Source: Candidatus Adlerbacteria bacterium
GTDB taxonomy: Bacteria; Patescibacteriota; Minisyncoccia; Phycocordibacterales; SBAW01
Length of the DNA stretch: 64,000 nt
Assembly: GCA_028286685.1 (NCBI GenBank)
Contig: JAQBRA010000004.1
Location: 12,898 to 76,897 of the forward strand
Reading direction: 5' to 3'
The notes under the pieces are model-generated. The model made no database searches. It was given only the letters and a program-made list of their open reading frames with translations, and was not told the origin of the DNA. The position numbers and the translations under genes are program-made. Of this stretch, positions 3,117 through 64,000 are shown one piece after another (position 1 is the stretch's first letter; each line of letters begins with the position of its first letter).

Positions 3117-4806
3117 TAGGTGGATGCTCCGCTGGTGGTTTAGGAAAGGCAAGATACGCTCGGAAATACATCCGGACGAAATTTTAATAGACTCCCAAAA
3201 CGTCTCGGACCTGGACCGCGACCAGTTCGAGGGCCGCATCGAGCGGCCGCTTTCCCGCCGGCAGCTGGTGGGCGCAGGGAGCGTCGTGGCCGTGGCAGTG
3301 CTGCTTCTGCTGGTGCGCGCCGGCAGCCTCCAAGTAGTGCATGGGCAGACGTATGCCGAGCAGGCCAAGAACAACCAGCTGACCGAGGAGACTATCTTTG
3401 CTGATCGCGGCACGATCGTCGACCGCAACGGCATCCCCTTGGCCTGGAACGAGCGCGACGAAATAGGCGATGATTTCGCCCGCCGGGCGTATGCCTCCAT
3501 GCGCGGGCTCGCCCATGCGGTGGGCTATACCAAGGCGCCTGCCAAGGACTCTTCCGGCAATTACTTCCGCACCGAGTTCGAGGGGCTCGACGGCGTCGAG
3601 AAGGCGTACAACGCAGAGCTAGGCGGCCAAAACGGGCTGCGCCTCACCGAGACAGACGCGCTTGGGAACGTTGTCTCGGAGGCGACGACGCGCGCGCCGG
3701 CGGCCGGCGCAGAGCTGCGGCTTTCTATCGATGCCAAGGTAACGCAGGGGCTCTACGACGTGCTGGCTAAGAACGCGGGCGCAGCGGGCTTCCAGGGCGC
3801 GGCGGGCGTCATTATGGATGTGCGCACCGGCGAGCTCTTGGCGCTTACCAGTTATCCCGAATACTCGCAGACCGCCATGGTCGAGGGCGACCGGGATTTG
3901 ATAGCCTCTTACAACACCGACAAGCGCCAGCCGTTCCTGGATCGCGCCGTAGACGGGCTCTATGCGCCGGGCTCTATCGTCAAGCCCATCATGGCTGCGG
4001 GCGCTATTTCCGACGGCATCATAGACGAATACAAGCAAATACTTTCAACGGGCTCCATTTCCATACCCAACCAGTACGATCCCAAAAATCCCACCCTATT
4101 CCGCGACTGGCGCGTCAACGGCTGGACCGACGCGCGCCACGCCATTGCGGTTTCCTCCGACGTGTACTTTTACTCCGTGGGCGGCGGCTACCAGGACCAG
4201 CGCGGCATGGGCATTGCCACTATCGACAAGTGGCTGCAGGCCTTCGGGTATGGGCAGGATGCGGGGCTCAAGGGCTTCTCCTCCAAGACCGGCACTATTC
4301 CGACTATCGACTGGAAAGCCAAGACTTTCCCGGACGATCCGACGTGGCGCCTCGGCAACACGTATCACACGGCGATAGGGCAGTTCGGCACGCAGGTCAC
4401 GCCGCTGCAGGCGGTGCGTACCGCAGTCGCCCTGGCCAACAGCGGCACGCTGCTCACGCCGACGCTTATAGCAAGCTCGACCCCGCAAGGCCAAAAGATC
4501 GACATCGACCCGCACGCTCTCCAGGTCGCCCGCGAAGGCATGCGCCTCGGCGTTACCGAGGGCATCGCCACAGGCGTCAAGCTCCCGTATGTCTCTGTTG
4601 CAGCCAAGACCGGCACTGCGCAGATCGGCATGAAGAACGAATACTGGAACGCCTGGATGATAGGCTTCTGGCCATACGAGAACCCCAAGTACGCCTTCGT
4701 AATGATCCTCGATCGGGCTCCCGCGCACACCTCGACCGGCGGAAACGTGGTCATGGCGCAGTTCTTCTCCTGGATGCACGAAAACGCGCCCGAATATCTG
4801 CAATAA
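3058..4806 (+). CDS. mrdA: penicillin-binding protein 2 (peptidoglycan D,D-transpeptidase, elongasome)
   Basis: SxxK (GSIVKP), SxN-like (VSSDVY) and KTGT (AKTGTAQ) active-site motifs. An alternative start at ATG 3124 is possible. Confidence 0.85.
   Translation: MRAFSAPLTSWTRRPSIGFNRWMLRWWFRKGKIRSEIHPDEILIDSQNVSDLDRDQFEGRIERPLSRRQLVGAGSVVAVAVLLLLVRAGSLQVVHGQTYAEQAKNNQLTEETIFADRGTIVDRNGIPLAWNERDEIGDDFARRAYASMRGLAHAVGYTKAPAKDSSGNYFRTEFEGLDGVEKAYNAELGGQNGLRLTETDALGNVVSEATTRAPAAGAELRLSIDAKVTQGLYDVLAKNAGAAGFQGAAGVIMDVRTGELLALTSYPEYSQTAMVEGDRDLIASYNTDKRQPFLDRAVDGLYAPGSIVKPIMAAGAISDGIIDEYKQILSTGSISIPNQYDPKNPTLFRDWRVNGWTDARHAIAVSSDVYFYSVGGGYQDQRGMGIATIDKWLQAFGYGQDAGLKGFSSKTGTIPTIDWKAKTFPDDPTWRLGNTYHTAIGQFGTQVTPLQAVRTAVALANSGTLLTPTLIASSTPQGQKIDIDPHALQVAREGMRLGVTEGIATGVKLPYVSVAAKTGTAQIGMKNEYWNAWMIGFWPYENPKYAFVMILDRAPAHTSTGGNVVMAQFFSWMHENAPEYLQ
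4770..4806. repeat. left copy of a 37-bp direct repeat, equal to the last 12 codons plus stop of mrdA
   Basis: ctggatgcacgaaaacgcgcccgaatatctgcaataa matches 6723-6759 in 36 of 37 positions. Confidence 0.9.
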
Positions 4807-33695: not shown

Positions 33696-33699
33696 TTTG

Positions 33700-33770
33700 T
33701 CGGGCCGCCGGGAATTGAACCCGGTCTACATGCACCCCATGCATGTGTACTGCCGGTATACTACGGCCCG
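33700..33770 (-). tRNA. tRNA-Pro (anticodon GGG)
   Basis: Hand-folded: acceptor CGGGCCG/CGGCCCG, D-stem GTAT/GTAC, anticodon stem CATGC/GCATG with loop ATGGGGT, T-arm CCGGG-TTCAATT-CCCGG. Confidence 0.8.
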
Positions 33771-33853: not shown

Positions 33854-34126
33854 ATGGCCAATGGAGACCGGTGCGTCCACTGCGACCTGCAGGAGACACA
33901 GCACGACCATCCTTACTATGCCCCTGAAGGGGTAAGTCCTTGCGGCATGTTCGAAAGTCCCGTTAAGCACGAGAAAGAGTGCCCTATAATCGGGTGCAAT
34001 GGCGATTGCCAGGAGACTTTGGCCGAAAGGGCCTGGAAGGCCCAGGTGGCAGAGAACCGGCTCCGCAATTCCTGGTATATGGACCCCCGAACGGGAAATA
34101 TTGTCTTAGTCGACATGAGCGATTGA
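33854..34126 (+). CDS. hypothetical Cys/His-rich small protein
   Basis: CVHC…C…CPIIGCNGDC pattern. Downstream hairpin plus T-tract at 34186-34215. Confidence 0.45.
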   Translation: MANGDRCVHCDLQETQHDHPYYAPEGVSPCGMFESPVKHEKECPIIGCNGDCQETLAERAWKAQVAENRLRNSWYMDPRTGNIVLVDMSD

Positions 34127-34209
34127 GCAAAATCGCCAATTGAAATCACCACTCTCAAAATACGTTGTCAAATAAGGGGTTCTTGGCACAGCCAAGGCCC
34201 CGTTTATTT

Positions 34210-34241
34210 TTGTCAAGCAAAGTGCTTGCAGCCCTTGACAA
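34210..34241 (+). promoter_or_regulatory. inverted-repeat operator/promoter element upstream of the SLT-like gene
   Basis: TTGTCAAG-N16-CTTGACAA, a perfect 8-bp inverted repeat. The right half is a consensus -35 hexamer. Confidence 0.5.
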
Positions 34242-34353
34242 GAAAATGGTACTATGTTCTTAACCCCAGAGCTTTCGAGCCCTGGGGACTTTTCGTGCCT
34301 GGGTAGTCGCCTAGGCACTGTGCATTACTACATAACCCCACGCAACCTATTAC

Positions 34354-34800
34354 ATGCCTGTTATCGCTGGTTTCGCCATTGCGCTCTCTGCGGCCGTAAG
34401 CAACGGTGCCGCAGTTGCGCCTCAGACCCAACCGACGGTAGCTATAACGCTCCCGGCCGCCATGCCCCAGTCCCAGTCCGTCGAGCAGTACATCCGCGAG
34501 TACTTTTCCGACGAGCCTGTCATGATCGAGATAGCCAAGTGCGAATCGCGCTTCCGCCAGTACGGCCAGGACGGCCACGTGCTGCGCAACGGATCAGGCA
34601 GCTCTGCCGTGGGCGTCTTCCAGGTCATGGGCTCGATCCATGCCAAGTTCGCCGACGACAAGCTCGGCCTGGACATTTACAGCCTCCAGGGCAACGCCGC
34701 ATACGCCCGCTACTTGTACGACCGCGAGGGCACCATGCCGTGGGCCGCTTCGGCCGGCTGCTGGAACAAGTCCGGCAAGCTCCTTGCCCGCGCCCAATAA
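34354..34800 (+). CDS. secreted lytic-transglycosylase (SLT/lysozyme-like) domain protein
   Basis: Signal peptide. AKCES (catalytic Glu-Ser) followed by AVGVFQVM (GLMQ-like) and an AAYARYL motif. Confidence 0.55.
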   Translation: MPVIAGFAIALSAAVSNGAAVAPQTQPTVAITLPAAMPQSQSVEQYIREYFSDEPVMIEIAKCESRFRQYGQDGHVLRNGSGSSAVGVFQVMGSIHAKFADDKLGLDIYSLQGNAAYARYLYDREGTMPWAASAGCWNKSGKLLARAQ

Positions 34801-34835
34801 AACTTAAAATAGTGGGGAAGTGGTCCCCTAGCAAA

Positions 34836-34862
34836 ACCCGCCCAGATTGGGCGGGTTTTGTG
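34836..34862. terminator. bidirectional terminator
   Basis: caaaaCCCGCCCAgattGGGCGGGttttgtg. Confidence 0.65.
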
Positions 34863-34914
34863 TTGGATGAAGAAACAGAATCGCCCGAAAGGTCAGGCGA
34901 CCTGTCGGGCGATA

Positions 34915-35193
34915 TTAGTTTAGATGCCGCTTGCGTTCCTGGCTTTCTCTGAGGAGCGTGCGCATGGAGTCGACTTCTTCGGCCGTTAAGTCCAGCCGTT
35001 CGATATACAGGTCAGCTTGCTCGCGAGTAATTTTGTTCTCGTCAACCCAGCCATCGAGTATGCCCAGCAACGAGCACTTAACGAGCATTTCGGTTTTTTC
35101 TTCAGATAAGGCAAGAAGTCGCCCTTCCCCCACAATGCCTTTGACAGAAAGCTCTCTTATAAGAGCCATTATCTTTGGCGATAGCTGAACCAT
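34915..35193 (-). CDS. hypothetical protein
   Basis: ORF with the terminator downstream. Start chosen at MVQLSPKIMALI. Confidence 0.35.
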   Translation of the reverse strand: MVQLSPKIMALIRELSVKGIVGEGRLLALSEEKTEMLVKCSLLGILDGWVDENKITREQADLYIERLDLTAEEVDSMRTLLRESQERKRHLN

Positions 35194-35480
35194 CCTTGCT
35201 CTCCTCAAGGTAAGTAGAAAGAATCTATAAATCAAAATACCTGAAATATATAGAAAGTCAAGTAGGGAAGTGACTCCCCCAGCTTCCCGAGAAAATATCG
35301 GCAAGACCCCCCTGAGCCTTTAGTATCAACAGTTCTCGGTTAGGGGAGCTGGGCATCTCGGCTAGCCAGAGTAGCCATATAAAGCCCGCTGTAAGCCCGT
35401 ATAAGGCGGCGGGAGAGGCGGATAGATACAAGAGGACCCAAGGCCGGGCCCCCTCCAGCTTCTCCCTATATAAGGGACGC

Positions 35481-35660
35481 AAAAGATATATTGTGCGACA
35501 CATCTTGCACTGATTCCCGATCGAATACGGACCAGTCAAAATGTGAAACTTTTCCACGCCCCCACCCTGCTGGCGGCCCGGCTGAAAAAGTTTTGGATCG
35601 TCGCACGTTCTATCTCAGATAATTATGTTAAAAAACGGTCCGGAGACCCCTCCCCCGAAA
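35481..35660 (+). repeat. copy A of a paralogous ~180-bp non-coding segment (promoter/leader of the HEPN-like gene)
   Basis: Conserved blocks gatatattgtgcgac, tgattcccga, aaaatgtgaaactttt, cc.accc.gc…gcccgg, agttttgg.tc, gacccctcccccg shared with 38241-38425. Confidence 0.75.
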
Positions 35661-36236
35661 ATTGAGATTCAGGAGGGAAGTGCTATTATTTTAGACGTGA
35701 AGCATCAGGACCTGAGGGACAAAATTGATGGCGCTTTTCTCAAGAAAGAATACTTGGAGTCATTCCTCATGCAGAGTGCCTATTTTGAAGCGGTTCTCAA
35801 GTATTTCCTTGAGTTCGTGCATTTCAAGATTATCTATGCTGAAAATGAAAACAAAGAGCATAAGCTAGTAGATATTCTCCAGAATAAGGTCGGCCGCTAT
35901 TCCCTCTTTGAGGTGATAACGATGCTTCGGGATTCCGAAGAGGTTTCCAAATCGGAAGCAGACGAACTGAATAAGTACAGAGAGAAGCGCAATAAAGTTC
36001 TCCATTCTTTGTTCGACGAAATGATGGGCCGAGAAGAGTTCGAAGAAAACCTTAAAAAGGTTGTCGAGTCTGGAAAAGTTATCGCCGAAACTAAGTGGTT
36101 TAAGTCCTTAGTTGAAGGCGTTGAAGATCTCGAAAAGATGTACGAACGTGGAAGATTAAAGAAAGAAAACATGCCGCCTAAGCAAACTGAGCCTCAGAAA
36201 TCCGGAGAGCAGCCTCCTTCCCCTGCTATAAACTAA
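35625..36236 (+). CDS. hypothetical protein with a HEPN-like Rx4H motif
   Basis: AT-rich codon usage. …NKYREKRNKVLHSLFDEMMG… carries the R-x4-H motif; otherwise helical. Confidence 0.5.
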   Translation: MLKNGPETPPPKIEIQEGSAIILDVKHQDLRDKIDGAFLKKEYLESFLMQSAYFEAVLKYFLEFVHFKIIYAENENKEHKLVDILQNKVGRYSLFEVITMLRDSEEVSKSEADELNKYREKRNKVLHSLFDEMMGREEFEENLKKVVESGKVIAETKWFKSLVEGVEDLEKMYERGRLKKENMPPKQTEPQKSGEQPPSPAIN

Positions 36237-36282
36237 TTATGTATACTATCCGTATGTAACCCATAAGCCGTGCGCCACAACC

Positions 36283-36395
36283 ATCACCTTGCGACCAGAG
36301 TCCTGCTACGGGCTCTGATCACTCGCAAGGTGAGTCAGGGTTCCGTAGTGGGACTTTGGTATTAAAAACTAGACGTAGCAGATCACCTTGCGATG
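36283..36395 (+). promoter_or_regulatory. structured leader with a tripartite repeat overlapping the FkbM start codon
   Basis: atcaccttgcga (36283), inverted tcgcaaggtg (36323), and gatcaccttgcgATG (36381) overlapping the start codon. Alternative hairpins are possible. Confidence 0.45.
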
Positions 36396-37109
36396 TTCTC
36401 ACAACTTAAGAGGCGGGTAAGTATTACCCCCTCACCCTTTCCCATACCAGTGGACGGCATGTGGCTCTTCGGGGCCCTGCCCCAGCACATAAGGCACGGC
36501 TACGACGAGAAGAGCACGATTGCCTACTTCCGCCGCCATATTAAGCCTGCCACCGTGTTTATAGACATCGGAGCGAACTACGGCTACTTCACGGTCCTTG
36601 CAGGCAAGCTGGGGGCTACCGTAGAAACCTTCGAACCCGACAAGACTTCTTTCCGCAGAACCTCGTGGAATGTCCGCCTCAATGGCCTTTCCCGTAAAGT
36701 TACCCTGCATAACACCGCAGTGTCAGACACAAGCGGAGTTGCCACGTTCTATATCGACAAGCCCGGATCGGGACTCAATTCCCTGGTTCCAGGGGTTCTC
36801 AAGAATGCCAAGGAAACGCGCGTCACAATCGAGCCGTACGAGGGGTACTACGACTTCTGCAAGATAGACGTGGAGGGCGCGGAGCTTCAGGTCCTCAAAG
36901 GACTGCGCCATAAGGGGATTGTCGTAGCGGAGTTCTGCCCCTCGCGACTGGATGAGATGGGGCTGGGAGCCCGGACCTTTCTCCAGGAAGTGCGCACAAT
37001 GGGGTGGAAAGTCTACAGTATGGACGAAGTGGAGCTGACTGACCAAGAAGCTATCAACCTGGCCGCCCTAGAATATCGGGATACTATCAATCTTTTGCTT
37101 ATTCCCTAA
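36393..37109 (+). CDS. FkbM-family SAM-dependent methyltransferase
   Basis: FIDIGANYGYFTVLAG (FkbM/Methyltransf_21 glycine-rich motif) and …FCKIDVEGAELQVL…. Confidence 0.75.
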   Translation: MFSQLKRRVSITPSPFPIPVDGMWLFGALPQHIRHGYDEKSTIAYFRRHIKPATVFIDIGANYGYFTVLAGKLGATVETFEPDKTSFRRTSWNVRLNGLSRKVTLHNTAVSDTSGVATFYIDKPGSGLNSLVPGVLKNAKETRVTIEPYEGYYDFCKIDVEGAELQVLKGLRHKGIVVAEFCPSRLDEMGLGARTFLQEVRTMGWKVYSMDEVELTDQEAINLAALEYRDTINLLLIP

Positions 37110-37245
37110 GCCCCATGAAGCGCCACTGGTACCGCTCCTCAGCAGAGATACCGCCTGCCCTGCCCCGCTCTCCGGGGAGACGGGGGCCAGGAAAGAAGAC
37201 GATCATCCTGTGGGAGGAAGGGAGAGACGGTCCCCGAGCATACAA

Positions 37246-37272
37246 CAAGGCCCCCTAGTGGGGGCTTTTGTT
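37246..37272. terminator. bidirectional terminator between the FkbM and protease genes
   Basis: aaGGCCCCCtagtGGGGGCttttgtttt. Confidence 0.65.
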
Positions 37273-37839
37273 TTAACGGCGTCCCTTTTTGGATTTTCGA
37301 GGGTTAGCGGCGCGGTTTATTGCCCGTTTGGCCTTCTCCTCTTCAAACCTATTCCAGTTCTCCACCTCTCCAATAAAATCAAATTCATGCACGGACGGTA
37401 TGCGGAACGACGCTACAGTTTTTCCTCCTTTATTAGTCAGAGCAAAATCTCCTTGAGTGAGAATGTCCATTCCGACAATAACTTCAAAATCAGGCTGGTC
37501 GGTTAGGTTGGCTTGGATGACCCTCAGTTTCGGAAACTTTACCCTACCGTCACACATAGAAAGTTCCTCAATAACGAACACCGGGACGTCACTGACCTTT
37601 CCTGCGGCTGTGCTCGACTCAGTAAGTCCCACTGACTGTAAGCTCATTTCCTGCACGAGTTCGGCTGATACGAATGTATGTGTCGCGCCAGTATCGACAA
37701 GTGCCGGGTACACTTTAGAGGTACCGGAGTCGTTCGTTATTTGTACTGGAATGACGATGCGATTGGCCGGACCAGAGAACCGCATTGACCAAGCTTCATG
37801 GCGTTCCATTTTAGTAGATAGCGGTTCTAGGCGAGGCAA
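37273..37839 (-). CDS. retropepsin-like (clan AA) aspartic protease
   Basis: ALVDTGATHTFVS (DTGA catalytic motif) and a later hydrophobic-GMDIL flap-like segment. Confidence 0.65.
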   Translation of the reverse strand: MPRLEPLSTKMERHEAWSMRFSGPANRIVIPVQITNDSGTSKVYPALVDTGATHTFVSAELVQEMSLQSVGLTESSTAAGKVSDVPVFVIEELSMCDGRVKFPKLRVIQANLTDQPDFEVIVGMDILTQGDFALTNKGGKTVASFRIPSVHEFDFIGEVENWNRFEEEKAKRAINRAANPRKSKKGRR

Positions 37840-38059
37840 AAGAGGCCGTGTAGCTGTCTACTCCTGGCGATACCTCCTGTAGAGAAAAATTTCCACGGCC
37901 AAATTTCTCAACTGCAAAATCATACGCTTCTGCAAGTGTATTCTTTACTTCGAGAATCTGATCGTCTTTAAGGATTAGAGTTTTACCATTGTACTTAGCC
38001 ACCAATTCGTCTTGGTGATCCTTGTAAAATTGTAGCGCCAAGGCGTGGTTTGATGCCAT
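37811..38059 (-). CDS. DUF5678-like small protein, partner of the aspartic protease
   Basis: 82 aa. …AKYNGKTLILKDDQILEVKNTLAEAYDFAVEKFGRGNFSLQEV matches the DUF5678-type pattern. Overlaps the protease ORF by 29 nt. Confidence 0.5.
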   Translation of the reverse strand: MASNHALALQFYKDHQDELVAKYNGKTLILKDDQILEVKNTLAEAYDFAVEKFGRGNFSLQEVSPGVDSYTASFASPRTAIY

Positions 38060-38240
38060 GCCCTCACTATACCAAAACGCTTCGATATAGCTAGCACGAA
38101 TCCCCTGTTTTTAGCAGGGTAAAAAGTCCTTTAATATGGCTTCATTTTCCACCTCGCCCATAAGAGTATTGCTCCCCTCCCAAGAGGTATTTATTCAAAT
38201 AGCCGAGACGTACCTGCAGCATAGCCACTCCAGCGTTCGC

Positions 38241-38425
38241 AAAACGATATATTGTGCGACGTATATGCTATTGATTCCCGACCGGGTTGAGTCTGCTTAA
38301 AATGTGAAACTTTTAGAGTCCCTACCCCGCCGCCGCGCCCCGGAAGATAGTTTTGGGTCCGGTCTCAATTCCCTCCGCTCTTTTTATAAATTTTCTGCAA
38401 AATTTCTCCAAAAGACCCCTCCCCC
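38241..38425 (+). repeat. copy B of the paralogous non-coding segment, followed by a terminator
   Basis: ~70% identity to copy A across ~180 bp, including the homologue of the HEPN gene's 5' end but no ATG. Ends at terminator 38459-38485. Confidence 0.75.
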
Positions 38426-38458
38426 GTTTTTTCAAAATTTGGGTAGGGGACCTAATAA

Positions 38459-38485
38459 AAAAGCCGCGGCATGCCGCGGCTTTTG
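38459..38485. terminator. bidirectional terminator
   Basis: aaaaaaGCCGCGGCatGCCGCGGCttttgac. Confidence 0.7.
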
Positions 38486-38503
38486 ACTTTTTCGCCGAGG
38501 CTA

Positions 38504-38764
38504 TTAATTGAGCCTCTTTGGTTTAACGTCTGGATTGTCTTCCAAAACCTTTTCTTGCAGGTAGCCGGCGGGTACTATGCTGATCGATACAATCGATATC
38601 TTGCGCTTCTTGTATCGGTCGAGAAATTCTTCCGCTTCGCGCCATGCTGCTTTGGGGTCCGGATAGGCAGTTCCGACTTTTTTCATCTGCAGCAGCAAGT
38701 TGTCCTCGCTATATGTTTCAGTGAGAATTCCTTGCCACATCCCTAGATTTTCTGCGTCAGCCAC
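38504..38764 (-). CDS. hypothetical protein
   Basis: 86-aa ORF immediately upstream of the terminator. Confidence 0.35.
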   Translation of the reverse strand: MADAENLGMWQGILTETYSEDNLLLQMKKVGTAYPDPKAAWREAEEFLDRYKKRKISIVSISIVPAGYLQEKVLEDNPDVKPKRLN

Positions 38765-38837
38765 GAGACGCTCCCTTTGTTGGTTTGGTTATCTGTAAAT
38801 TACATTAACATAACAATACAAGTATGTCCAGAGTGCT

Positions 38838-39503
38838 ATGATGAAGAGGATGAGCTACGCAGACAAGATAGGCGCCCTCCTCTCCCCTGCTGAGCGGGCG
38901 GTTTTTATAAAGTTGAACACGCCACAGAAGGTGCAGGACTACTTGGACGCCATGCCACTTAACTTTGAGGTACGCGGCGAAGAAGGCATATACAGCCCAC
39001 GAGAGGTATTAAAGAAAAAGAAGGCCCAATGCATGGAAGGGGCGCTTTTAGCAGTAGCAGCGCTCGAGTACAACGGCCAGCGGGCCTACTTGCTTGATTT
39101 GCGCACGCCCGAGTACGATTACGATCATGTGGTCGCTTTGTTTAAGGTAGGCGGCCGGTGGGGCGCCATAAGCAAAACAAACCACCCGGTGCTGCGGTGG
39201 CGCGACCCGGTGTACACAAGCGTGCGCGAGCTCGCAGTCTCATACTTTCACGAGTACTTCCTTTTTAGCGGCGAGAAGACTCTTAAGTCGCACTCTGACG
39301 CATTCTCCCTGCACCCCTACCCACTTGAGCGGTGGCTCACTACAGAAGATGACTTGGATTGGCTGGCCACCGAGCTTGATAAAGCAAAGCACTTCCCTAT
39401 TGCATCACCCAAGGCGATGAAGTCGCTGCGTCGTGCGTCCAAGATCGAGCGCAAAGCGACCGAGATGGTCGAGTGGAAGGATCCGTCAAAAAAGAAAGCT
39501 TAA
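38838..39503 (+). CDS. hypothetical protein, possible transglutaminase-like/papain-fold Cys-His-Asp peptidase
   Basis: CMEGALLAVAALEYNG … DHVVALF … weak Cys/His/Asp arrangement. Confidence 0.4.
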   Translation: MMKRMSYADKIGALLSPAERAVFIKLNTPQKVQDYLDAMPLNFEVRGEEGIYSPREVLKKKKAQCMEGALLAVAALEYNGQRAYLLDLRTPEYDYDHVVALFKVGGRWGAISKTNHPVLRWRDPVYTSVRELAVSYFHEYFLFSGEKTLKSHSDAFSLHPYPLERWLTTEDDLDWLATELDKAKHFPIASPKAMKSLRRASKIERKATEMVEWKDPSKKKA

Positions 39504-40273
39504 TTTTTAAGCCCGATGCCGTTGCGGAAGAGGTAGAGCGCGGTGCCTACGAAGGCAACCGTGAGGCCGCCTAAGACGCCAAAGCACAGCCCAAGGCTTA
39601 TATCGCTAATGCCCAAGAATCCGTAGCGGAACGCATTGACCATGTAGAGTATCGGATTGAACATCGAGACCGTCTGCCAGAACGGCGAGAACTGCTGGAT
39701 AGAGAAAAAGATGCCGCCGAGGTACGTGAGAGGGGTCAGGACGAAGGTCGGCACGATCGAGATGCCGTCAAAGCCCTTGGCGAATACGCCGTTGATAAGC
39801 CCGCCGAGGCTAAACAGCACTGAGGTGAGCACGATTGCTCCAATGAGGACAAATATGTTGAATATGACGAGGTGCGTAAAGAACAGGGACACCAGGAGGA
39901 CCAGGAAGCCCACCAAGAGTCCGCGCAATACTCCCCCGCTCATAAAGCCGAGTATCACCAGCCAGTCCGGCATGGGCGACACTAGAATTTCGTCGAGCGT
40001 CTTGGTCCATTTGGCAAAGTAGAAGGTCGAGACCGTATTCATGTACGAGCTCGTAATGACCGACATCATGATGAGGCCCGGGACGATAAACTGGATGTAC
40101 TCAAAGCCGTGGATAGGGGCGAGCTGTGAGCCGATGAATTTGCCGAAGACGACGAAGTAGAGTCCGGTCGTGATAACCGGAGGCAGGAGCGTCTGCGACC
40201 AGATGCGCACGATGCGCGTCAGCTCGTTGCGCATCATCGTGAAATACGGGATCCAGTACGGGTGTCGGGTCAT
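39500..40273 (-). CDS. ABC-2 type transporter permease
   Basis: Six transmembrane helices. 4-nt overlap with the upstream ATPase gene. Confidence 0.8.
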   Translation of the reverse strand: MTRHPYWIPYFTMMRNELTRIVRIWSQTLLPPVITTGLYFVVFGKFIGSQLAPIHGFEYIQFIVPGLIMMSVITSSYMNTVSTFYFAKWTKTLDEILVSPMPDWLVILGFMSGGVLRGLLVGFLVLLVSLFFTHLVIFNIFVLIGAIVLTSVLFSLGGLINGVFAKGFDGISIVPTFVLTPLTYLGGIFFSIQQFSPFWQTVSMFNPILYMVNAFRYGFLGISDISLGLCFGVLGGLTVAFVGTALYLFRNGIGLKN

Positions 40274-57872: not shown

Positions 57873-58820
57873 TTACAGGCTTACGCCGATGTTCTGGCGC
57901 ACCTCCTCCATTTTCTTCGATGCTATCGCTTTGGCCTTTGCGGCGCCTTGGGCCAGGGCCTTCTTAACATCATCGTCGGTAAGCGCAGCGTATTTAGCGC
58001 GCATCGGGGCCAAGTAAGCGTTGATATCGGCGGCCAAAGCCTCCTTGAGAATCTTGTAGCTCCCCTTGTTGGCTTCATAGAGCGGTGCCAGCTCCTCTTC
58101 GCTCTTGAAGAGCTTGTGGATGGCGTAGACATGGGCCGGACGCTCGCCGGATGAGTCGGTAACAATGCTCATGATCGCCTTAAGAGTATCCTCCTCGCTG
58201 CCAAAGAGCGGGATGGTGTTCTTGTAACTCTTGCTCATTTTCTGTCCGTCGGTGCCGGGCACTACGGCTACCTCGTCGCGGATCTTTTCCTGCGGTTCTT
58301 TAAGAGTCTGTCCGTAGGCCAAGTTGAACTTATTTGCGGCCTCGCGCGCATACTCCACGTGCTGGCGCTGGTCGGCGCCTACGGGCACGATGTCGGTGTC
58401 ATACAGGAGAATGTCGGCCGCCATGAGCATCGGATAGTTAAACAGTCCTGCGTTGGCCTCGAGCCCTTTGGCTACCTTGTCTTTGTAGGCGTGCGCGAGC
58501 TCTAAAAACTTTACCGTAACGAGGGTCTCGAGCATCCAGGCAAGCTCGGTGTGCTCGGATACGTCAGACTGTTTGAAAATAATCGAGTTGGAAGGATCGA
58601 TGCCGATAGCCAGGAGCGTCTTGGTGGTGTCGAGGATGTTCTGCCTAAGCGCTGCCGGGTCTTTGACGGTTGTGAGCGCGTGGTAGTCGACGACGCAGAA
58701 GATGCAGTCGTCCTCCTGGCTCATCTCGACCCACTGCTTGAGCGCGCCGAAATAGTTGCCGATGTGGAGCGCCCCGGACGGCTGCACGCCGCTAAATACG
58801 CGTTTTTTGCCCTCTGCCAT
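57873..58820 (-). CDS. trpS: tryptophanyl-tRNA synthetase
   Basis: GVQPSGALHIGNY (HIGH) and KMSKSYKN (KMSKS); 315 aa. Confidence 0.9.
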   Translation of the reverse strand: MAEGKKRVFSGVQPSGALHIGNYFGALKQWVEMSQEDDCIFCVVDYHALTTVKDPAALRQNILDTTKTLLAIGIDPSNSIIFKQSDVSEHTELAWMLETLVTVKFLELAHAYKDKVAKGLEANAGLFNYPMLMAADILLYDTDIVPVGADQRQHVEYAREAANKFNLAYGQTLKEPQEKIRDEVAVVPGTDGQKMSKSYKNTIPLFGSEEDTLKAIMSIVTDSSGERPAHVYAIHKLFKSEEELAPLYEANKGSYKILKEALAADINAYLAPMRAKYAALTDDDVKKALAQGAAKAKAIASKKMEEVRQNIGVSL

Positions 58821-58872
58821 ATGAGTATGAGTGTACCAGAAAAGTCCTTAAGGGGCTTGGGTTTTTAGACAC

Positions 58873-58901
58873 TTGACAAATGAGTTAAATAGGAGTATAA
58901 T
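58873..58901 (+). promoter_or_regulatory. consensus sigma70-type promoter
   Basis: TTGACA-aatgagttaaataggag-TATAAT. Confidence 0.65.
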
Positions 58902-58934
58902 TAAATAAATAGTTCATCAAACACGGGGGTTGCA

Positions 58935-59315
58935 ATGGAATTTCCGAAACCGCTTATGTCATACGAGGAGGCCTTGAAAGAGGTTGATGGATTGGCCGAC
59001 AAGCTCGGTCATAAAATTGAAGAAAAAATCAACCCACTCGTTGCTGCTCTGCGGATGTACGGTATTGTCACATCAGCGTCCTGCCAAGGACACGGCGGCT
59101 GTGGTTTGCGATATCCATGGATCGACGTCGAGATGGAAAGCATCCCTCTGGCAAGTCGGGTGGTTTGTGCCGCAAACTCGGCGCGTCATTGGTGGGTTTT
59201 TGAGCCCAGGCCGACTTTTATGCGGCTCCATCCTGGGAACATCAGGGTAAAACTGAGCCGCATGCAGCATCAGGCTCTGGTGTTTGCTGAACGGATTCGT
59301 AAGCTAAATGACTAG
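58935..59315 (+). CDS. hypothetical protein
   Basis: 126-aa ORF with GGGGG ribosome-binding site. Terminator 59322-59360 (AAACGGCGGGAcaaatGTCCCGCCGTTT). Confidence 0.45.
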   Translation: MEFPKPLMSYEEALKEVDGLADKLGHKIEEKINPLVAALRMYGIVTSASCQGHGGCGLRYPWIDVEMESIPLASRVVCAANSARHWWVFEPRPTFMRLHPGNIRVKLSRMQHQALVFAERIRKLND

Positions 59316-59381
59316 CGAGTCGTTAAGCAAAACGGCGGGACAAATGTCCCGCCGTTTTTTTATTTGCTCTGCTTTTTTGTC

Positions 59382-60491
59382 TTAGATCCCCTCCTCCTTA
59401 AGCTTCTCAACTAAACTCTTAGCTGCTTTGGAAAGCTTGTGAGGGAAGAGGATTTTGACCCGAACATACATGTCTCCCCTCTTGCCGCCGCGCTGCGGTA
59501 CGCCGCGGCCTTTTACCTTGAGCATCTCGCCATGGCTGACGCCGGTCGGGATATCTATATCTTCCTCGCCATCAAGCGTCTGGAGCTTGTAGCTGGTGCC
59601 CAACAGGGCGTCGGTAAGTTTGACGGAGAGCTCGGTAGTGAGGTTGGGCCCATCTTTCTTAAAGCGCGCATCGGGCTGGATATGCACCTTAACGTAGAGG
59701 TCGCCGGGGTTGCCGCCCGAGACCGCCTCGCCCATGCCGGTAAGGCGTATCATCTCATTGCCCTCGATGCCGGCCGGTACGGTGATGTCTATCTCCTCCT
59801 GCTTCTTGTATACCCCTTCGCCGCGGCAGGTCTCGCACTTTTCCTTGGGGACCTTGCCCATGCCCTTGCAGTGGCGGCACACGCTCTGCATGGTAATAGT
59901 GCCAAAGAAGGAATTGGTCGTCTCGTGGACCTTGCCCTGCCCGTTGCAGTGGGTACAGGTCATCATTTCGGTGCCCATCTTGGCGCCCGAGCCCTGGCAG
60001 GCCTCGCAGGTGCCGGTCTTAGCCAAAAGTACCGAGCGCTTGATGCCGAAAATAGAGTCTTTAAAGGAAATTTCGAGGTCAATGGAGATGTCGCGGCCGC
60101 GGCGCACGCGGGTGCCGCCTGCCTGGCCGGCAAAGATGTCTCCAAAAATATCCCCCATGTCAAAGCCTGCTCCGCCCTGATTGAAGGCCTCGGCAAATTG
60201 GCTGAAGTCAAAGCCGCCGCCCTGGCCGAATCCGCCAAAGCCTCCGGCACCCGTCCCGCCGGGAGCGCCCCCTCCGCCAAACACGCGGCCGTAGGAGTCG
60301 TACTCGGCGCGTTTCTTGTCGTCGGAAAGGACCGAGTATGCCTCGCTCACCTCCTTAAATTTGTCCGCGTCGCCCTCTTTCTTGTCCGGATGGAACTTGT
60401 GCGCGAGCTTGTGGAACGCCTTCTTAATCTCCTCTTTAGATGCCTTCTTCTCTATCCCCAAGATCTCGTAGTAGTCGCGTTTGTTGGACAT
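59382..60491 (-). CDS. dnaJ: chaperone DnaJ
   Basis: J-domain with HPD (…FHPDKK), Gly/Phe-rich region, four CxxCxGxG zinc repeats. Confidence 0.9.
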
Positions 60492-60579
60492 AATTATCCA
60501 CATTGTACGCGCCGTATGGCGCGTATGCAAGCTTTAGCCATAGTCCCGCTTAGTTGACAATAAGTGGAAAAATAAAAAA

Positions 60580-60607
60580 ATGCTCATGCGTACTTCAGCA
60601 TGAGCAT
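60580..60607. promoter_or_regulatory. perfect 10-bp inverted repeat upstream of dnaJ
   Basis: ATGCTCATGC-gtacttca-GCATGAGCAT. Preceded by a TTGACA box (60554) and followed by a terminator at 60646-60680. Confidence 0.45.
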
Positions 60608-60645
60608 GAAGCTTCTTTTGTTCGTAGTGCGGACGATTAGGGAAA

Positions 60646-60680
60646 AGAAAAAGGCCGCAACACAAAGTGTTGCGGCCCGG
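60646..60680. terminator. intrinsic terminator
   Basis: aaaaaGGCCGCAACACaaaGTGTTGCGGCCcggg. Confidence 0.65.
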
Positions 60681-60732
60681 GAACTAGTTACCTAATTCCG
60701 AATGTGCTTCTTGTTGTAGATCGAGCCGGCGC

Positions 60733-61197
60733 TTAGTTGTTCCGGCTCGTGAGGGTGCTGATCACGTTCTTGACCTGCGACATGTTGCCGGCCGCGAGCG
60801 CAGTCGAATTCGCCTCGGAGACGCCCGCCGCCAGGCTGTTGGCCACGCCGCTGACCGCCTGGTTCGCCGAGCCGCTGAGCTGGCCGACCACGGTGTTGGC
60901 CTGCGCGCCCATGGCGCCGAACGTGCCCAAATGCTCCGACGTCGCCGAGATGGCGTTGTCGACCGACGAGCTGTTGAGCATGACGGCACCCAGAGCGTCG
61001 GTCTTCGCGTTGGACGTGTTCGACGTGGCGTTGGCAACCGCACCGGCAACCTGCTGGCCGACGATCGTGCCCTGCAGGATGACGGTATTCGCCGCATCGA
61101 ACGTCTGGGCGTTGGCCGGAGCCGCGGGCAGAAGAGCGAGAACAGCGGCGCCGGCAATGAGGGCGGCGGCGCGGAACATGGTACGAATGGTCTTCAT
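60733..61197 (-). CDS. secreted Ala/Asn/Ser/Gly-rich low-complexity protein
   Basis: Signal peptide …AAPANAQT, then imperfect repeats (…AGAVANATSNTSNAKTDALGAV…ANQAVSGVANSLAAGVSEANSTALAAG…). Confidence 0.5.
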   Translation of the reverse strand: MKTIRTMFRAAALIAGAAVLALLPAAPANAQTFDAANTVILQGTIVGQQVAGAVANATSNTSNAKTDALGAVMLNSSSVDNAISATSEHLGTFGAMGAQANTVVGQLSGSANQAVSGVANSLAAGVSEANSTALAAGNMSQVKNVISTLTSRNN

Positions 61198-61295
61198 GAC
61201 TTGCTTCCTTGGTTGTTGTCGCGTGATTACAGTAGCGGGTTGCGACTCCTCCCGCTACAGTTCCCTGCCTCCGGCGGAATGCCAGGGGAGGTATC

Positions 61296-62294
61296 TCAGT
61301 TAAGTGCCGAGACGACTGTCTCGTTGCGGCACTTATAAAGGTTGAACTTCTGCTCCAGCAGGTCGCCGACCGCGAGGTCGATCAGGTCTCCCATCGAGTC
61401 TTGCACCGGCTCGCGCCGCTGCGCACCCGCTTCGAGATTGATCAGCTGCGGCTTTACGTCACCGAAGTAACGCGTCAGCTGCAGACGGATGCCGTCCTGA
61501 ACGACCTGCTTTTTGACCGTGGTGGTTGCCACGATCCGTCCGCCCACCGAGTCTCCAACCGGAAACTCAACGAGTCGCATGTCGAGCCGCTGGGCGATTC
61601 GATTCTGCTCGTAGCCGGCAGTAAGCCCTGCGGCTCCGCCGTTGATGCCGCCGCCGGGCAGAAAGTCGGTTCCGGTGATCGAGCCCATAATCACGTAGCG
61701 CGCGGGGTACAAAGTCCCTTTGCGCAACGGTATGTTCTTAATCTGGACCGTCTGCGACTCCGTCTTGGGCGGCGTGTTGGTGGTGACCTTGAGCGTAGCC
61801 GGACGGGAGACCCCGTCTGGACCCTTGATCTCCTGGTTCGGGATGGTTGTTTCCGTCACCGAGCCTTCCTGAGTTCTTACATTCAGGACGGCAGGACGGC
61901 TGACGCCGTCGCCAACGAGCTCCTGGCCTGCTTTGGCCTGGAACCAGTCGAGCGTTCCCCGGTAAACCGGATCCAGCTCGACAAGCCTCACCCCGGTGCG
62001 ACCCAGGGAGGATATTGCCATATCGGCTCCACCTTGGGTATTGAAGGCGCCGGTGCCGTCGTTGCTGGAGTAGTTGGCTTTGCCGGTTTTATCGCCGCCG
62101 CCGACCACTCCGAACGCAACTTGGCGCTGAGCCTTGGTGAGATTGCGTGCAACGCACGCAAGCTTGCCTTCCGCCACCTTACCCGTAACTTCGGGCTCGG
62201 GGCCCTTGGGCAGCTGTACATTTTCCCCGAACGGGGCAACTGCGCAGCCAGCCAAGGATAGAGCCGCAATAAGTACGGCCACGATGCGATGCAT
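61296..62294 (-). CDS. lipoprotein, possibly CsgG-family (curli-type secretion channel)
   Basis: Lipobox LSLAGC. The C-terminal half (…IMGSITGTDFLPGGGINGGAAGLTAGYEQNRIAQRLDMRLVEF…GGRIVAT…) resembles the CsgG core by pattern. The ORF's N-terminal extension to 62441 is rejected. Confidence 0.45.
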   Translation of the reverse strand: MHRIVAVLIAALSLAGCAVAPFGENVQLPKGPEPEVTGKVAEGKLACVARNLTKAQRQVAFGVVGGGDKTGKANYSSNDGTGAFNTQGGADMAISSLGRTGVRLVELDPVYRGTLDWFQAKAGQELVGDGVSRPAVLNVRTQEGSVTETTIPNQEIKGPDGVSRPATLKVTTNTPPKTESQTVQIKNIPLRKGTLYPARYVIMGSITGTDFLPGGGINGGAAGLTAGYEQNRIAQRLDMRLVEFPVGDSVGGRIVATTTVKKQVVQDGIRLQLTRYFGDVKPQLINLEAGAQRREPVQDSMGDLIDLAVGDLLEQKFNLYKCRNETVVSALN

Positions 62295-62316
62295 GCCACT
62301 CACTCCTGGTTGGGCG

Positions 62317-62787
62317 CTACGGCGTCGACTTGGTGACAACACTGTCAGCCGAGTTGTAGACGCCGCCGGTGCCCTGCGTTGTTGCGTTTGATTTGGCGGT
62401 GCCCGACTGCGTAGCGTTGTTGGCGCTTTGCGTCGTGCCATTCGTCACAGCATTGCCGTTGCCGGTAATGATCGTGTCGTTTTGGCTGTAGTTGCCGATC
62501 ACCGTGTTATGGGACGCACTAAACGGGCCGGTGTAGGTGTATTGCTGCACCACATCGCCGTTGTAGACGGTAGAGCCGCCGGTTGAACCGGGAGCGCCAG
62601 TTATGATGCCATGACGATTCAGGTAGTCCTGATAGGCGTCATTGCGCAACAGACTCTTGTCGTAGGTGCTCGTTGGAGCCCACGTGCCGCTCCATTTCAG
62701 GGGCGCATTGTTAGGCGATTGGGCTTGCGCCGCAGTCGCCAGGAAGGCCAGGCAAAGCCCGACAATCCCGCTTATGAGCTTTGTCAT
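62317..62787 (-). CDS. secreted Asn/Gln/Thr/Gly-rich repeat protein (curlin-like composition)
   Basis: Signal peptide MTKLISGIVGLCLAFLATAAQAQ. Repeats such as TGNGNAVTNGTTQSANNATQSGTAKSNATTQGTGG. Confidence 0.45.
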   Translation of the reverse strand: MTKLISGIVGLCLAFLATAAQAQSPNNAPLKWSGTWAPTSTYDKSLLRNDAYQDYLNRHGIITGAPGSTGGSTVYNGDVVQQYTYTGPFSASHNTVIGNYSQNDTIITGNGNAVTNGTTQSANNATQSGTAKSNATTQGTGGVYNSADSVVTKSTP

Positions 62788-62909
62788 GAGTTCCTCTCTT
62801 TGTTCAAAGTGCAATTTGCCGTTAAAAAGGGCGCCGTTAGGCGCTCTTTCAGCACTGGAGCGATCTTAACCTACTTAATAAAACGTGTCAAGCGTGGACA
62901 ATACTCAAG

Positions 62910-64000
62910 TTAGTGTTCTTCATTTTTGGCCGGTTCTTCCCCATCTCCTAAAAATCCTCCCGCCTGGATGCTCCAGAGCTTCTGGTAGAGCCCGCGCTCG
63001 CGAATCAGCTGCAGGTGGGTGCCCTGGGCGACCACTGCTCCCCCGTCTATGACCACTATCCGGTCCATTTTCATGATAGTGGAGAGGCGATGCGCGATGA
63101 CTATGACCGTCTTCCCTTCCATAAGCACATTGAGCGCATCCTGTATCAATGCTTCGGACTCGGAGTCGAGGCTTGAGGTCGCTTCGTCCAGAACCAGTAT
63201 GGGCGCGTCTTTCAGTATTGCCCTAGCAATGGCGACGCGCTGGCGCTCGCCGCCGGAGAGCTTGATGCCCCGCTCGCCCACGAGCGTGTCGTAGCCCAGC
63301 GGGAGCTTTGAGATAAATTCGTGGCAGTGCGCCTTCTTGGCGGCCTCTATAACCTGCTCGTTGGTTGCATCGCGATAGCCGTACCGGATGTTTTCCATAA
63401 GCGTGCGGTGGAACAGGATAGGCTCTTGCGGCACGAAAGCTATCGCGTCGCGCAGAGTATCTTGGGTAACCTTGCTGATATCTTGTCCGTCTATCTTTAT
63501 TTCGCCCAAGGCGACATCGTAAAGCCGCAGCAAGAGCTTGGTCACAGTCGACTTGCCCGCACCCGAGGGGCCCACCAGCGCTACCCGCTCCCCGCCGGAA
63601 ATAGTGAGGTTGAATTGCTGCAGAATGGGCGTGCCTTTATGGAAGTTAAACGACACGTCGTCAAACCAGACCTCGCCCGTATCAACCCTAAGGCGCTTGG
63701 CGCCCTTTTTGTCGCGTATCTCGTGGGGGGTTTGAAGTATGGCGAGCATCTCCCCGGCGTCGGCAAATGCGTCATAAAATCGGCGCAAGTTAAACCCTAT
63801 GCCCATAAGCAGGTTAAAGACCGTGAGCAGGTAGGCCTGTATGAGTACGAAGTCGCCCAAGGTCAGCTCGCCTTGCCTCCAGAGCAGGACCGCGCCCCAC
63901 AGGAGTCCCACCTGTATGGCTACGACAAAAAGCCCGATGATTCCCCAGGTCCAGCCGTCTATGAGCCAGTTGCGCAGGGTTTTCTGCCGCCAATCGGTAA
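62910..64000 (-). CDS. ABC exporter (fused permease-ATPase, MsbA-like); N-terminal part lies outside the window
   Basis: Walker A GPSGAGKST, signature LSGGERQRV, Walker B LVLDEATSSLD. The frame stays open past 64000. Confidence 0.85.
   Translation of the reverse strand, partial: TDWRQKTLRNWLIDGWTWGIIGLFVVAIQVGLLWGAVLLWRQGELTLGDFVLIQAYLLTVFNLLMGIGFNLRRFYDAFADAGEMLAILQTPHEIRDKKGAKRLRVDTGEVWFDDVSFNFHKGTPILQQFNLTISGGERVALVGPSGAGKSTVTKLLLRLYDVALGEIKIDGQDISKVTQDTLRDAIAFVPQEPILFHRTLMENIRYGYRDATNEQVIEAAKKAHCHEFISKLPLGYDTLVGERGIKLSGGERQRVAIARAILKDAPILVLDEATSSLDSESEALIQDALNVLMEGKTVIVIAHRLSTIMKMDRIVVIDGGAVVAQGTHLQLIRERGLYQKLWSIQAGGFLGDGEEPAKNEEH

Follow-up and report, generated by a model that had tools for sequence, protein, structure and literature searches.

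What is a relative of the curli secretion channel doing in a bacterium of the Candidate Phyla Radiation (CPR, or Patescibacteria), a group proposed to be without an outer membrane (PMC12102498)? The question is raised by three co-oriented open reading frames (ORFs), here named genes A, B and C, which span positions 60733-62787 on the minus strand of a 64,000-nucleotide stretch of contig JAQBRA010000004.1 from Candidatus Adlerbacteria (CPR/Paceibacterota); this whole stretch is called the window below. The preliminary description of the locus, whose gene positions and orientations we recover unchanged, had read it as a minimal curli (type VIII secretion) system. Part of that reading stands, namely a lipoprotein of the CsgG/HfaB family flanked by two secreted proteins, but the secreted proteins are not curlins, no csgE or csgF was found in the window or 8 related loci, and the lipoprotein does not fall on the CsgG branch. 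The A-B-C set resembles the holdfast-anchor operon of Caulobacter more than curli, and we favour, with a probability of about 0.55, the interpretation that it is a self-contained operon of the hfaABD type, encoding a surface-anchor or adhesin assembly module of the CsgG/HfaB family.

62317-62787, minus strand: gene A, 156 residues, secreted, T/G/S/N-rich, signal peptide at residues 1-23 (cleavage between AQA and Q)
61296-62294, minus strand: gene B, 332 residues, lipoprotein of the CsgG/HfaB family
60733-61197, minus strand: gene C, 154 residues, secreted, A/S/N/V/T/G-rich, signal peptide at residues 1-30 (cleavage between ANA and Q)

All three ORFs are genuine genes. A metagenome-assembled genome (MAG) at NCBI, labelled 'Candidatus Adlerbacteria bacterium', carries on a 192-kb contig a hypothetical protein with 100% identity to B (P0001), and the product of the gene next to it has 100% identity to A (P0017); homologues are found in the same order at 10 other distinct loci (related loci are labelled L001-L021 and compared proteins P0001 and so on). 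The ATG codon of gene A is preceded by GAGAGGAA and that of gene B by AGGAG, the start of B being the one annotated by NCBI. The opposite strand also has long ORFs, among them 61401-62261 and 60737-61303, but these are shadows of the kind usual for coding sequence rich in guanine and cytosine (GC).

Protein B within the CsgG/HfaB superfamily

Protein B begins with MHRIVAVLIAALSLAGC, a lipoprotein signal peptide, and its relation to CsgG can be followed through the elements listed here, in which TM1 and TM2 denote the two transmembrane hairpins of CsgG.

62244-62255, minus strand: lipobox L-A-G-C, residues 14-17, read from the sequence
62019-62093, minus strand: residues 68-92, DKTG motif and equivalent of the constriction loop (C-loop), collinear with D-E-T-G...F-S-T-A-V-P-Q of Escherichia coli CsgG
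61728-61910, minus strand: residues 129-189, lineage-specific insertion, a tandem duplication of a β-hairpin unit of about 30 residues
61593-61664, minus strand: residues 211-234, TM1 hairpin equivalent, aligned to mature residues 132-156 of E. coli CsgG
61410-61502, minus strand: residues 265-295, TM2 hairpin equivalent, from alignment to E. coli CsgG

The Pfam CsgG family (PF03783) matches B at 28.8 bits, above its gathering cut-off of 20.8 (E 9.2e-7), and most close homologues of B carry a precomputed match to the same family. The likeness to the CsgG core that the preliminary description had seen in the C-terminal half of the lipoprotein is real, but it spans the whole of B, Pfam merely scoring residues 192-316. 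Indeed, a multiple alignment bridged by proteobacterial relatives shows B and E. coli CsgG to be collinear all the way from lipobox to C-terminal helix. An AlphaFold2 (AF2) monomer model of B computed from 14 sequences (predicted local distance difference test score, pLDDT, 64.6; predicted template-modelling score, pTM, 0.55) gave the structural result anticipated in the preliminary description: the first 24 matches of a Foldseek search of the Protein Data Bank (PDB) are all CsgG chains, the membrane-inserted form 4UV3 among them (best E 3.4e-12), and the modelled chain displays the α/β core and the two long β-hairpins of the CsgG fold.

Six residues of the constriction-loop region (D68, T70, G71, F84, T86 and Q87) do not vary within the close family, and the spacing from the aromatic residue to Q fits HfaB-like proteins, not CsgG. 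The TM1 equivalent of B is 24 residues long, against 25 in E. coli CsgG, with a mean hydropathy of 0.07 against -0.53; this region is singled out by both hhalign and hmmsearch and is modelled by AF2 as a long hairpin (E200-243). The TM2 equivalent measures 31 residues against 29, with a mean hydropathy of -0.62 against -0.29, and is also modelled as a hairpin (E254-293). Both are CsgG-like in length, charge and hydropathy, the barrel-forming elements having thus been retained.

Other features set the B family apart. The insertion, which follows helix 2, consists of units that both begin with DGVSRPA, at residues 129-159 (DGVSRPAVLNV...) and 160-189 (DGVSRPATLKV...), and AF2 models it as two extra hairpins (E132-157 and E163-186). 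Its length varies among homologues, P0004 having a different and longer expansion, and L007, L016 and E. coli CsgG having none. A conserved pair of cysteines, C47 and C322, is a further feature of the family. The lipobox reads LGGC, LAGC or LVGC in most homologues of B. Two distant Paceibacterota homologues (L018:4432-5280 and L019:4101-5192) have ordinary signal peptides and no lipobox cysteine, so lipid anchoring does not appear to be universally required; the family would include non-lipidated, presumably released proteins of the CsgG fold.

Comparison with curated family models places B away from CsgG proper. The NCBIfam CsgG equivalog (NF011731) does not match B at E <= 1, and similarity to CsgG itself is weak (hmmsearch to PDB CsgG, E 0.44; hhalign to E. 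coli CsgG, 60%, over TM1 only). B matches the NCBIfam HfaB model (NF037935) at 39.1 bits (E 4.9e-10), below the equivalog cut-off of 300. Its closest relatives outside the CPR, from Comamonas, Loktanella, Brucella and Photobacterium, score 88-225 bits with HfaB against 15-63 bits with the CsgG equivalog; the nearest of them is 25-28% identical to B, and hhalign aligns the CPR B family with proteobacterial HfaB-like proteins at 99.8% over 268 columns (E 1.5e-29). Taking together the HfaB match, the missing CsgG-equivalog match and the profile similarity to HfaB-like proteins, B belongs, judged from its sequence, to the HfaB branch of the superfamily as a divergent member. About a quarter of the proteins that match Pfam CsgG belong to curli systems (Dueholm et al., PMC3521004), and a Pfam match alone therefore never establishes curli.

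The secreted partners A and C

Proteins A and C are both of low complexity, almost uncharged and free of cysteine, and both carry Sec signal peptides. In these respects they agree with the two secreted repeat proteins of the preliminary description, and C does contain two repeats of about 50 residues, but A is unrepeated. The elements of the two proteins that are discussed in this section are as follows.

62608-62700, minus strand: A residues 30-60, conserved N-terminal region, a W-x3-W/Y...S..D motif followed by an amphipathic helix
62335-62361, minus strand: A residues 143-151, C-terminal strand motif VYNSADSVV, common to the mature N-terminus of C
61078-61104, minus strand: C residues 32-40, counterpart motif TFDAANTVI at the start of repeat 1
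60946-61092, minus strand: C residues 36-84, repeat 1, from a half-versus-half local alignment
60757-60900, minus strand: C residues 100-147, repeat 2, from the same alignment

Mature A contains 16% T, 12% G, 11% S and 11% N, with 9% charged residues. A HMMER search of 1.84 billion cluster representatives returned 63 relatives at E <= 1e-3, all 89-187 residues long and matching over nearly their full length; A and its CPR relatives match no Pfam or NCBIfam family, even at E <= 10. The signal peptide is followed by the motif W-x3-(W/Y)-x2-x-S-x2-(D/E)(R/Q), in which W32, like A51 further on, is almost invariant among 62 members of the family. The helix at residues 41-58 is the sole part of the AF2 model predicted with high confidence (pLDDT up to 94; pTM of the model 0.31), and the T/N/S/G-rich tail behind it is predicted to be mostly unstructured. 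No internal repeat was detected in A by half-versus-half Smith-Waterman alignment (z = 0.6), and its autocorrelation is strongest at lags 21-23 and 45, with z <= 3.0, under the 95th percentile of shuffled maxima (3.2-3.4).

The N-terminal motif of A recurs in small proteins encoded upstream of proteobacterial HfaB-like genes: hhalign pairs it with the protein upstream of the Brucella plasmid gene at 90.7% (E 1.2e-6) and with the Loktanella upstream protein at 63.5%, and in the Comamonas protein it is visible by eye. This common motif puts A in a loose class of small secreted proteins found beside HfaB-like genes. A is not recognizable as HfaA itself, since NF037934 matches neither A nor five CPR relatives at E <= 10, and one of 62 wider relatives matches weakly (E 0.0021). 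Nor could A be identified as an accessory protein of the CsgF or CsgE type (hhalign <= 2%), the layout of motif and helix being an architectural analogy to the N-terminus of CsgF only.

Mature C contains 19% A, 13% S, 11% N, 10% V, 10% T and 10% G. Its two tandem repeats score z 3.4 in the window copy by half-versus-half Smith-Waterman alignment and 6.1, 7.6, 10.5 and 8.2 in the homologues of L002, L005, L007 and L016; in each of these proteins, the window copy included, 0 of 300 shuffles reached the observed score. C is without a match in Pfam or NCBIfam, as are its homologues and the proteobacterial proteins in the equivalent position, and for C and five homologues no NCBIfam match was found at E <= 1 in a library not confirmed to include an HfaD model.

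A short motif links the two proteins. The pattern [TV][FY][DNH][AES].[ND].[IV][IVT] occurs among the 127,996 six-frame positions of the window at just two sites, the C-terminus of A and the mature N-terminus of C. Among loci in the dnaK context described below, the terminal motif of A reads VYNSADSVV in the window, TFDAANTIV in L001, VYDASNTIT in L002 and VFDANNNIT in L005, and the N-terminal motif of C reads TFDAANTVI in the window, TYDAVNNVV in L005 and VYHEVDTVV in L002. When the A 9-mer is aligned to C without gaps, its best match lies at the mature N-terminus of C in 11 of 12 A-by-C comparisons, the second-best often falling at the start of repeat 2; in more distant loci the motif is not evident. 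A thus appears to end in a copy of the predicted first strand of the C repeat unit, and the motif may reflect strand pairing or templating between the two proteins. Such a pairing would recall the dependence of HfaA multimerisation on HfaD (PMC6707917) and the nucleation logic of CsgB and CsgA. A and C were also compared as possible homologues of each other and rejected as such (hhalign 1%), the 9-residue terminal motif being all that they have in common.

Genomic contexts, residence and transcription

The A-B-C set, or A-B on truncated contigs, was found at 11 distinct loci in four genomic neighbourhoods, its order being kept in CPR lineages that have diverged from one another, and the contexts that could be placed are those of Paceibacterota. 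A lies directly upstream of B in all of them, and in 4 of 4 distant A-family members with a readable context the next gene is again a B homologue. C follows B wherever the contig extends, L001 excepted; its homologues are present downstream of B in L002, L005, L007, L009 (two copies), L016, L018, L019 and L021. In L001-L006 the gene order is grpE-dnaK-ABC exporter-A-B-C-dnaJ-trpS (ABC, ATP-binding cassette), and on the 648-kb contig of L007 it is dnaK-A-B-C-dnaJ, the ABC gene being missing. The order A-B-C-C' adjoins smpB in L009; in L018, L019 and L021 the set follows secD/F ... pyrH, the SecF of L018 clustering at >=90% identity with proteins of Candidatus Paceibacterota; and L016 offers a further, different context.

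Some of these loci display variations of their own. L009 encodes two tandem paralogues of C downstream of B (L009:3192-3620 and 3756-4205), by smpB and outside the dnaK-dnaJ setting. In L001 a remnant of gene C (L001:6921-7168) joins the signal-peptide codons (MKFISKIAAALAV...) to the last 20 or so codons (...ANIGNAATQQANITSLTSQH), the cause being a genuine deletion inside the gene or else a collapse of the two repeats during assembly. In several Adlerbacteria/Paceibacterota genomes the module, with or without the ABC exporter, interrupts an otherwise contiguous grpE-dnaK-dnaJ cluster (window 57873-64000, L001-L007).

The B family is scarce. A word-indexed search of 5.8 billion proteins returned 8 relatives of B at 46-54% identity, to which profile searching added 3; a scan of GTDB species representatives yielded one extra locus, in another Adlerbacteria MAG, and a scan of JGI metagenomes two loci, one of them a duplicate, hence one new locus. 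Out of billions of proteins, the family amounts to some 12 close members and a few dozen distant ones. The module is 5-10 points richer in GC than its flanks, but the GC content at third codon positions (GC3) is 0.72 for A and B and 0.71-0.78 for their neighbours, the excess being located at codon position 2. Taking into account that GC3 is like that of the neighbours and that the position-2 excess reflects amino-acid composition, the module appears native and long resident, and recent horizontal transfer is ruled out as the source of its higher GC content.

The transcription signals and the neighbouring genes of the window copy are listed here.

62910-64000, minus strand: upstream ABC exporter gene (ABC_membrane and ABC_tran), about 600 residues, cut by the window end
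62863-62891, minus strand: sigma-70-like promoter, TTGACA-17 nt-TAAGAT, 10/12 consensus matches, a consensus match only
60652-60678, minus strand: intrinsic-terminator-like hairpin after C, 12-bp stem with 8 G-C pairs, T-run
60580-60607, minus strand: second terminator-like hairpin, lying like the first between the C stop and the dnaJ start
59382-60530: dnaJ, downstream neighbour
57873-58820: trpS, downstream neighbour

The predicted promoter is located in the interval from the ABC gene stop (62910) to the gene A start; with a promoter and terminators of its own, A-B-C looks like an independent transcription unit. The ABC exporter is found between dnaK and A in L001-L006 and is missing from L007, L009, L016, L018, L019 and L021. 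Its status as an obligatory component is thus not supported, 6 of the 11 loci being without it, and it is probably a neighbour of the module. Caulobacter hfaC, which we take to be ABC-like, would be a parallel; a literature search was uninformative on this point.

Elsewhere in the window, positions 34000-40000 have a GC content of 0.51, against 0.55-0.62 in the remainder, and encode mostly unrecognizable proteins along with a methyltransferase-like and a retropepsin-like ORF. This segment adjoins tRNA-Pro-GGG (33699-33770) and may be an island integrated beside that gene.

Known systems, rival explanations and significance

The hfa genes of Caulobacter offer the closest described parallel. In hfaA-hfaB-hfaD, as here, a small secreted protein, a CsgG-like lipoprotein and a second secreted protein are encoded in that order in one operon; B groups with HfaB-like proteins, both partners are secreted and of low complexity, and CsgE and CsgF are absent, as judged here from the window and 8 related loci. 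HfaB is required for the surface localisation of HfaA and HfaD, which form multimers resistant to sodium dodecyl sulphate, and the multimerisation of HfaA needs HfaD (PMC6707917; bioRxiv 10.1101/2022.07.20.500906). The differences are also clear: B reaches 39 bits where the HfaB cut-off is 300, A and C match no NCBIfam model, HfaA included, the protein in the HfaD position is 154 residues long with two repeats, and the host is a CPR bacterium rather than a stalked alphaproteobacterium. HfaA has been reported as restricted to Caulobacterales (bioRxiv 10.1101/2022.07.20.500906), and no hfs or polysaccharide genes were seen in the immediate neighbourhoods inspected.

The nearest relatives of the locus are proteobacterial loci annotated as 'CsgG/HfaB family protein', such as those in Comamonas odontotermitis and on plasmids of Loktanella salsilacus and Brucella pseudintermedia, which encode the closest non-CPR relatives of B. 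They share the three-gene layout, with a small secreted protein upstream that carries a W..F/Y..S..DR...G-Y-Y motif, and downstream proteins that are A/N/S/T/G-rich repeat proteins. However, their hosts are diderms, the upstream proteins are like A in the N-terminal motif only, and the downstream proteins, of 156-1022 residues, are not detectably homologous to C. A literature search found no experimental study of these loci. The Comamonas locus is of interest in its own right. Directly downstream of its HfaB-like gene, in the position of HfaD and C, it encodes a secreted A/N/S/T/G-rich protein of 1022 residues (L011:7512-10580) with degenerate '...SGN.A.ASA..N.A.N.I...' repeats, which matches no family and shows no similarity to C. 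The HfaB-like protein itself (P0013, L011:6001-7380) has a C-terminal extension of about 170 residues, in which weak matches to peptidoglycan-binding anchors of the OmpA/MotY/PA1041 type (E 7e-5 to 0.09) suggest a channel variant tethered to peptidoglycan.

These comparisons lead to a model in which Sec would export A and C, and B would be lipidated and oligomerise into a CsgG-like ring, a nonamer being expected by analogy. A and C would require this ring for their passage to, stabilisation at or positioning on the cell surface. The conserved N-terminal motif and helix of A may serve to dock it to B, in a manner analogous to the N-terminal targeting segments of CsgA or CsgF, and its C-terminal strand may pair with C and so start or close off an adhesive or anchoring polymer, possibly amyloid-like. 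In a CPR cell living as an episymbiont, this A-C structure would fasten to a host or substrate either the cell itself or a polymer on its surface.

Several observations weigh against such an assembly. The AF2 models are of moderate confidence only, and A is not predicted to form a β-solenoid; the oligomeric state, the amyloid character and the adhesin role are all proposed by analogy. Apart from the single weak HfaA match among 62 relatives of A, neither A nor C has detectable homology to HfaA, CsgA or CsgB. The homology of C across genomic contexts is marginal (hhalign 60%, E 8.7e-5, 125 columns), though collinear, as would be expected for fast-evolving proteins of low complexity, and the internal deletion in L001 implies that C is dispensable at least there, unless it is an assembly artefact. 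The homologues of L018 and L019 lack the lipobox cysteine. Finally, the suggested lack of an outer membrane leaves the membrane for the B barrel undefined, and the term 'secretion channel' may not apply. Cryo-electron microscopy of groundwater CPR cells is reported to show no outer membrane. In diderms, one outer membrane houses both the lipid anchor and the barrel of CsgG. The lipid anchor of B would, in a monoderm, hold the protein to the external side of the cytoplasmic membrane, a place in which an open barrel of 36 strands would be hazardous. Nothing relevant that connects either CsgG or curli to Patescibacteria, CPR or monoderms came out of a literature search.

The proposal from which the analysis started was that of a genuine minimal curli system with B as a CsgG channel and A, C or both as divergent curlins forming curli-type amyloid fibres. 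B shares with CsgG the fold, the Pfam match, the lipobox, the DxTG and constriction-loop region and the two barrel hairpins; A and C, predicted to be exported by Sec, have a CsgA-like composition rich in N, Q, S, T, G and A and no cysteine, C is internally repeated, and the conserved N-terminal segment of A could act like the CsgG-targeting or CsgG-binding segments of CsgA or CsgF. Some curli systems, moreover, are without csgE and csgF (PMC3521004). The preliminary description had tied its proposal to a CsgG fold in the lipoprotein and to curlin periodicity in the secreted proteins; the fold is present and the periodicity is absent. The curlin repeat (PF07012, Curlin_rpt) matches neither the A and C families nor the proteobacterial proteins in the C position at E <= 10. 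For A and C the 22-23-residue periodicity test gives z <= 3.0, against 9.8 for CsgA and 9.3 for CsgB, and the repeat of C, about 50 residues long, occurs twice. With hhalign, the probabilities are <1% against E. coli CsgA and CsgB and <= 2% when CsgE and CsgF are included; together with the Pfam and periodicity results this disposes of a curlin identity for A and C. A tblastn search of the window and 8 related loci with E. coli CsgE, CsgF and CsgC, the first two being those for which the preliminary description had suggested a search, yielded nothing better than E 0.59. Considering also that B has no CsgG-equivalog match, differs by its lineage-specific hairpin insertion and stands much nearer to HfaB-like proteins, that curli systems account for only about a quarter of Pfam-CsgG proteins, and that type VIII secretion across an outer membrane cannot be assumed in a CPR host presumed to be monoderm, we regard a curli system as highly improbable. 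Still less credible is that a proteobacterial fragment was mis-assembled or mis-binned into a CPR MAG: the fold class is otherwise typical of diderms and the module is richer in GC than its flanks, but the same CPR housekeeping flanks (grpE-dnaK ... dnaJ-trpS) recur in independent NCBI, JGI, ENA and Logan assemblies, the 648-kb contig included, GC3 is like that of the neighbours with the excess attributable to amino-acid composition, and the nearest non-CPR relative is just 25-28% identical.

The principal competitor of an hfaABD-type operon makes of B a ring or scaffold protein of the envelope, of the fold class of PelC, TolB-N, LpoB, TraT and FlgT, rather than a transport channel, A and C being wall- or surface-layer-associated proteins that depend on B or associate with it, for example in an envelope, division or attachment structure. 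It would dispense with the outer membrane that CPR are proposed to lack, and it agrees with the two homologues predicted to be non-lipidated and with the position of a module of native codon usage among housekeeping genes (dnaK-dnaJ, secDF-pyrH, smpB). However, a pure scaffold would have no need of the conserved, CsgG-like barrel hairpins and constriction-loop region, and the tight linkage to two secreted disordered proteins fits the substrate logic of CsgG and HfaB, so that we hold this explanation possible, though unlikely. An alternative that keeps the barrel would place it in another membrane, either an outer-membrane-like layer of Adlerbacteria/Paceibacterota or the outer membrane of the host, in which B would form a pore where the episymbiont touches it, A and C serving as tether. 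The retention of membrane-competent hairpins is compatible with it, the non-lipidated secreted variants of L018 and L019 would suit release towards a target, and CPR bacteria are known as episymbionts (PMC12206443). This alternative is entirely speculative and, in our estimation, very unlikely: the module has no linked genes for toxins, effectors or uptake, the B family is rare, and a lipidated B would be tethered to the membrane of its own producer. An operon of the hfaABD type remains the reading that we prefer.

CsgG, HfaB and their fold relatives (PelC, TraT, LptE and TolB-N) are hallmarks of the diderm envelope, and a conserved HfaB-type barrel protein with secreted partners is therefore unexpected in Paceibacterota. 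In its strongest form the finding would be that a β-barrel lipoprotein of the CsgG/HfaB type, a fold otherwise tied to the outer membrane, is stably kept with two dedicated secreted partners in a CPR lineage believed to be monoderm, a claim that we consider doubtful and put forward with much reserve. If it were true, either Adlerbacteria/Paceibacterota would have an unrecognised outer-membrane-like layer, or the barrel would work outside an outer membrane of the producer, for instance in the host membrane at an episymbiotic contact with A and C as the tether; in either case it would represent a new operating mode for the type VIII/Hfa machinery and a new device for host attachment by CPR bacteria. 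Automated NCBI annotation already labels one B homologue 'CsgG/HfaB family protein', the system is rare, and what is said of it beyond homology and synteny is inferred. The module nevertheless would extend the HfaB branch, and the operon logic of small protein, channel and repeat protein, far beyond Caulobacterales and Proteobacteria, and it defines two new families of partner proteins, one of which has an N-terminal motif in common with proteobacterial loci. As the way in which CPR bacteria build their envelope and attach to hosts is little understood, this compact set of three genes may provide an experimentally tractable handle on their surface biology.

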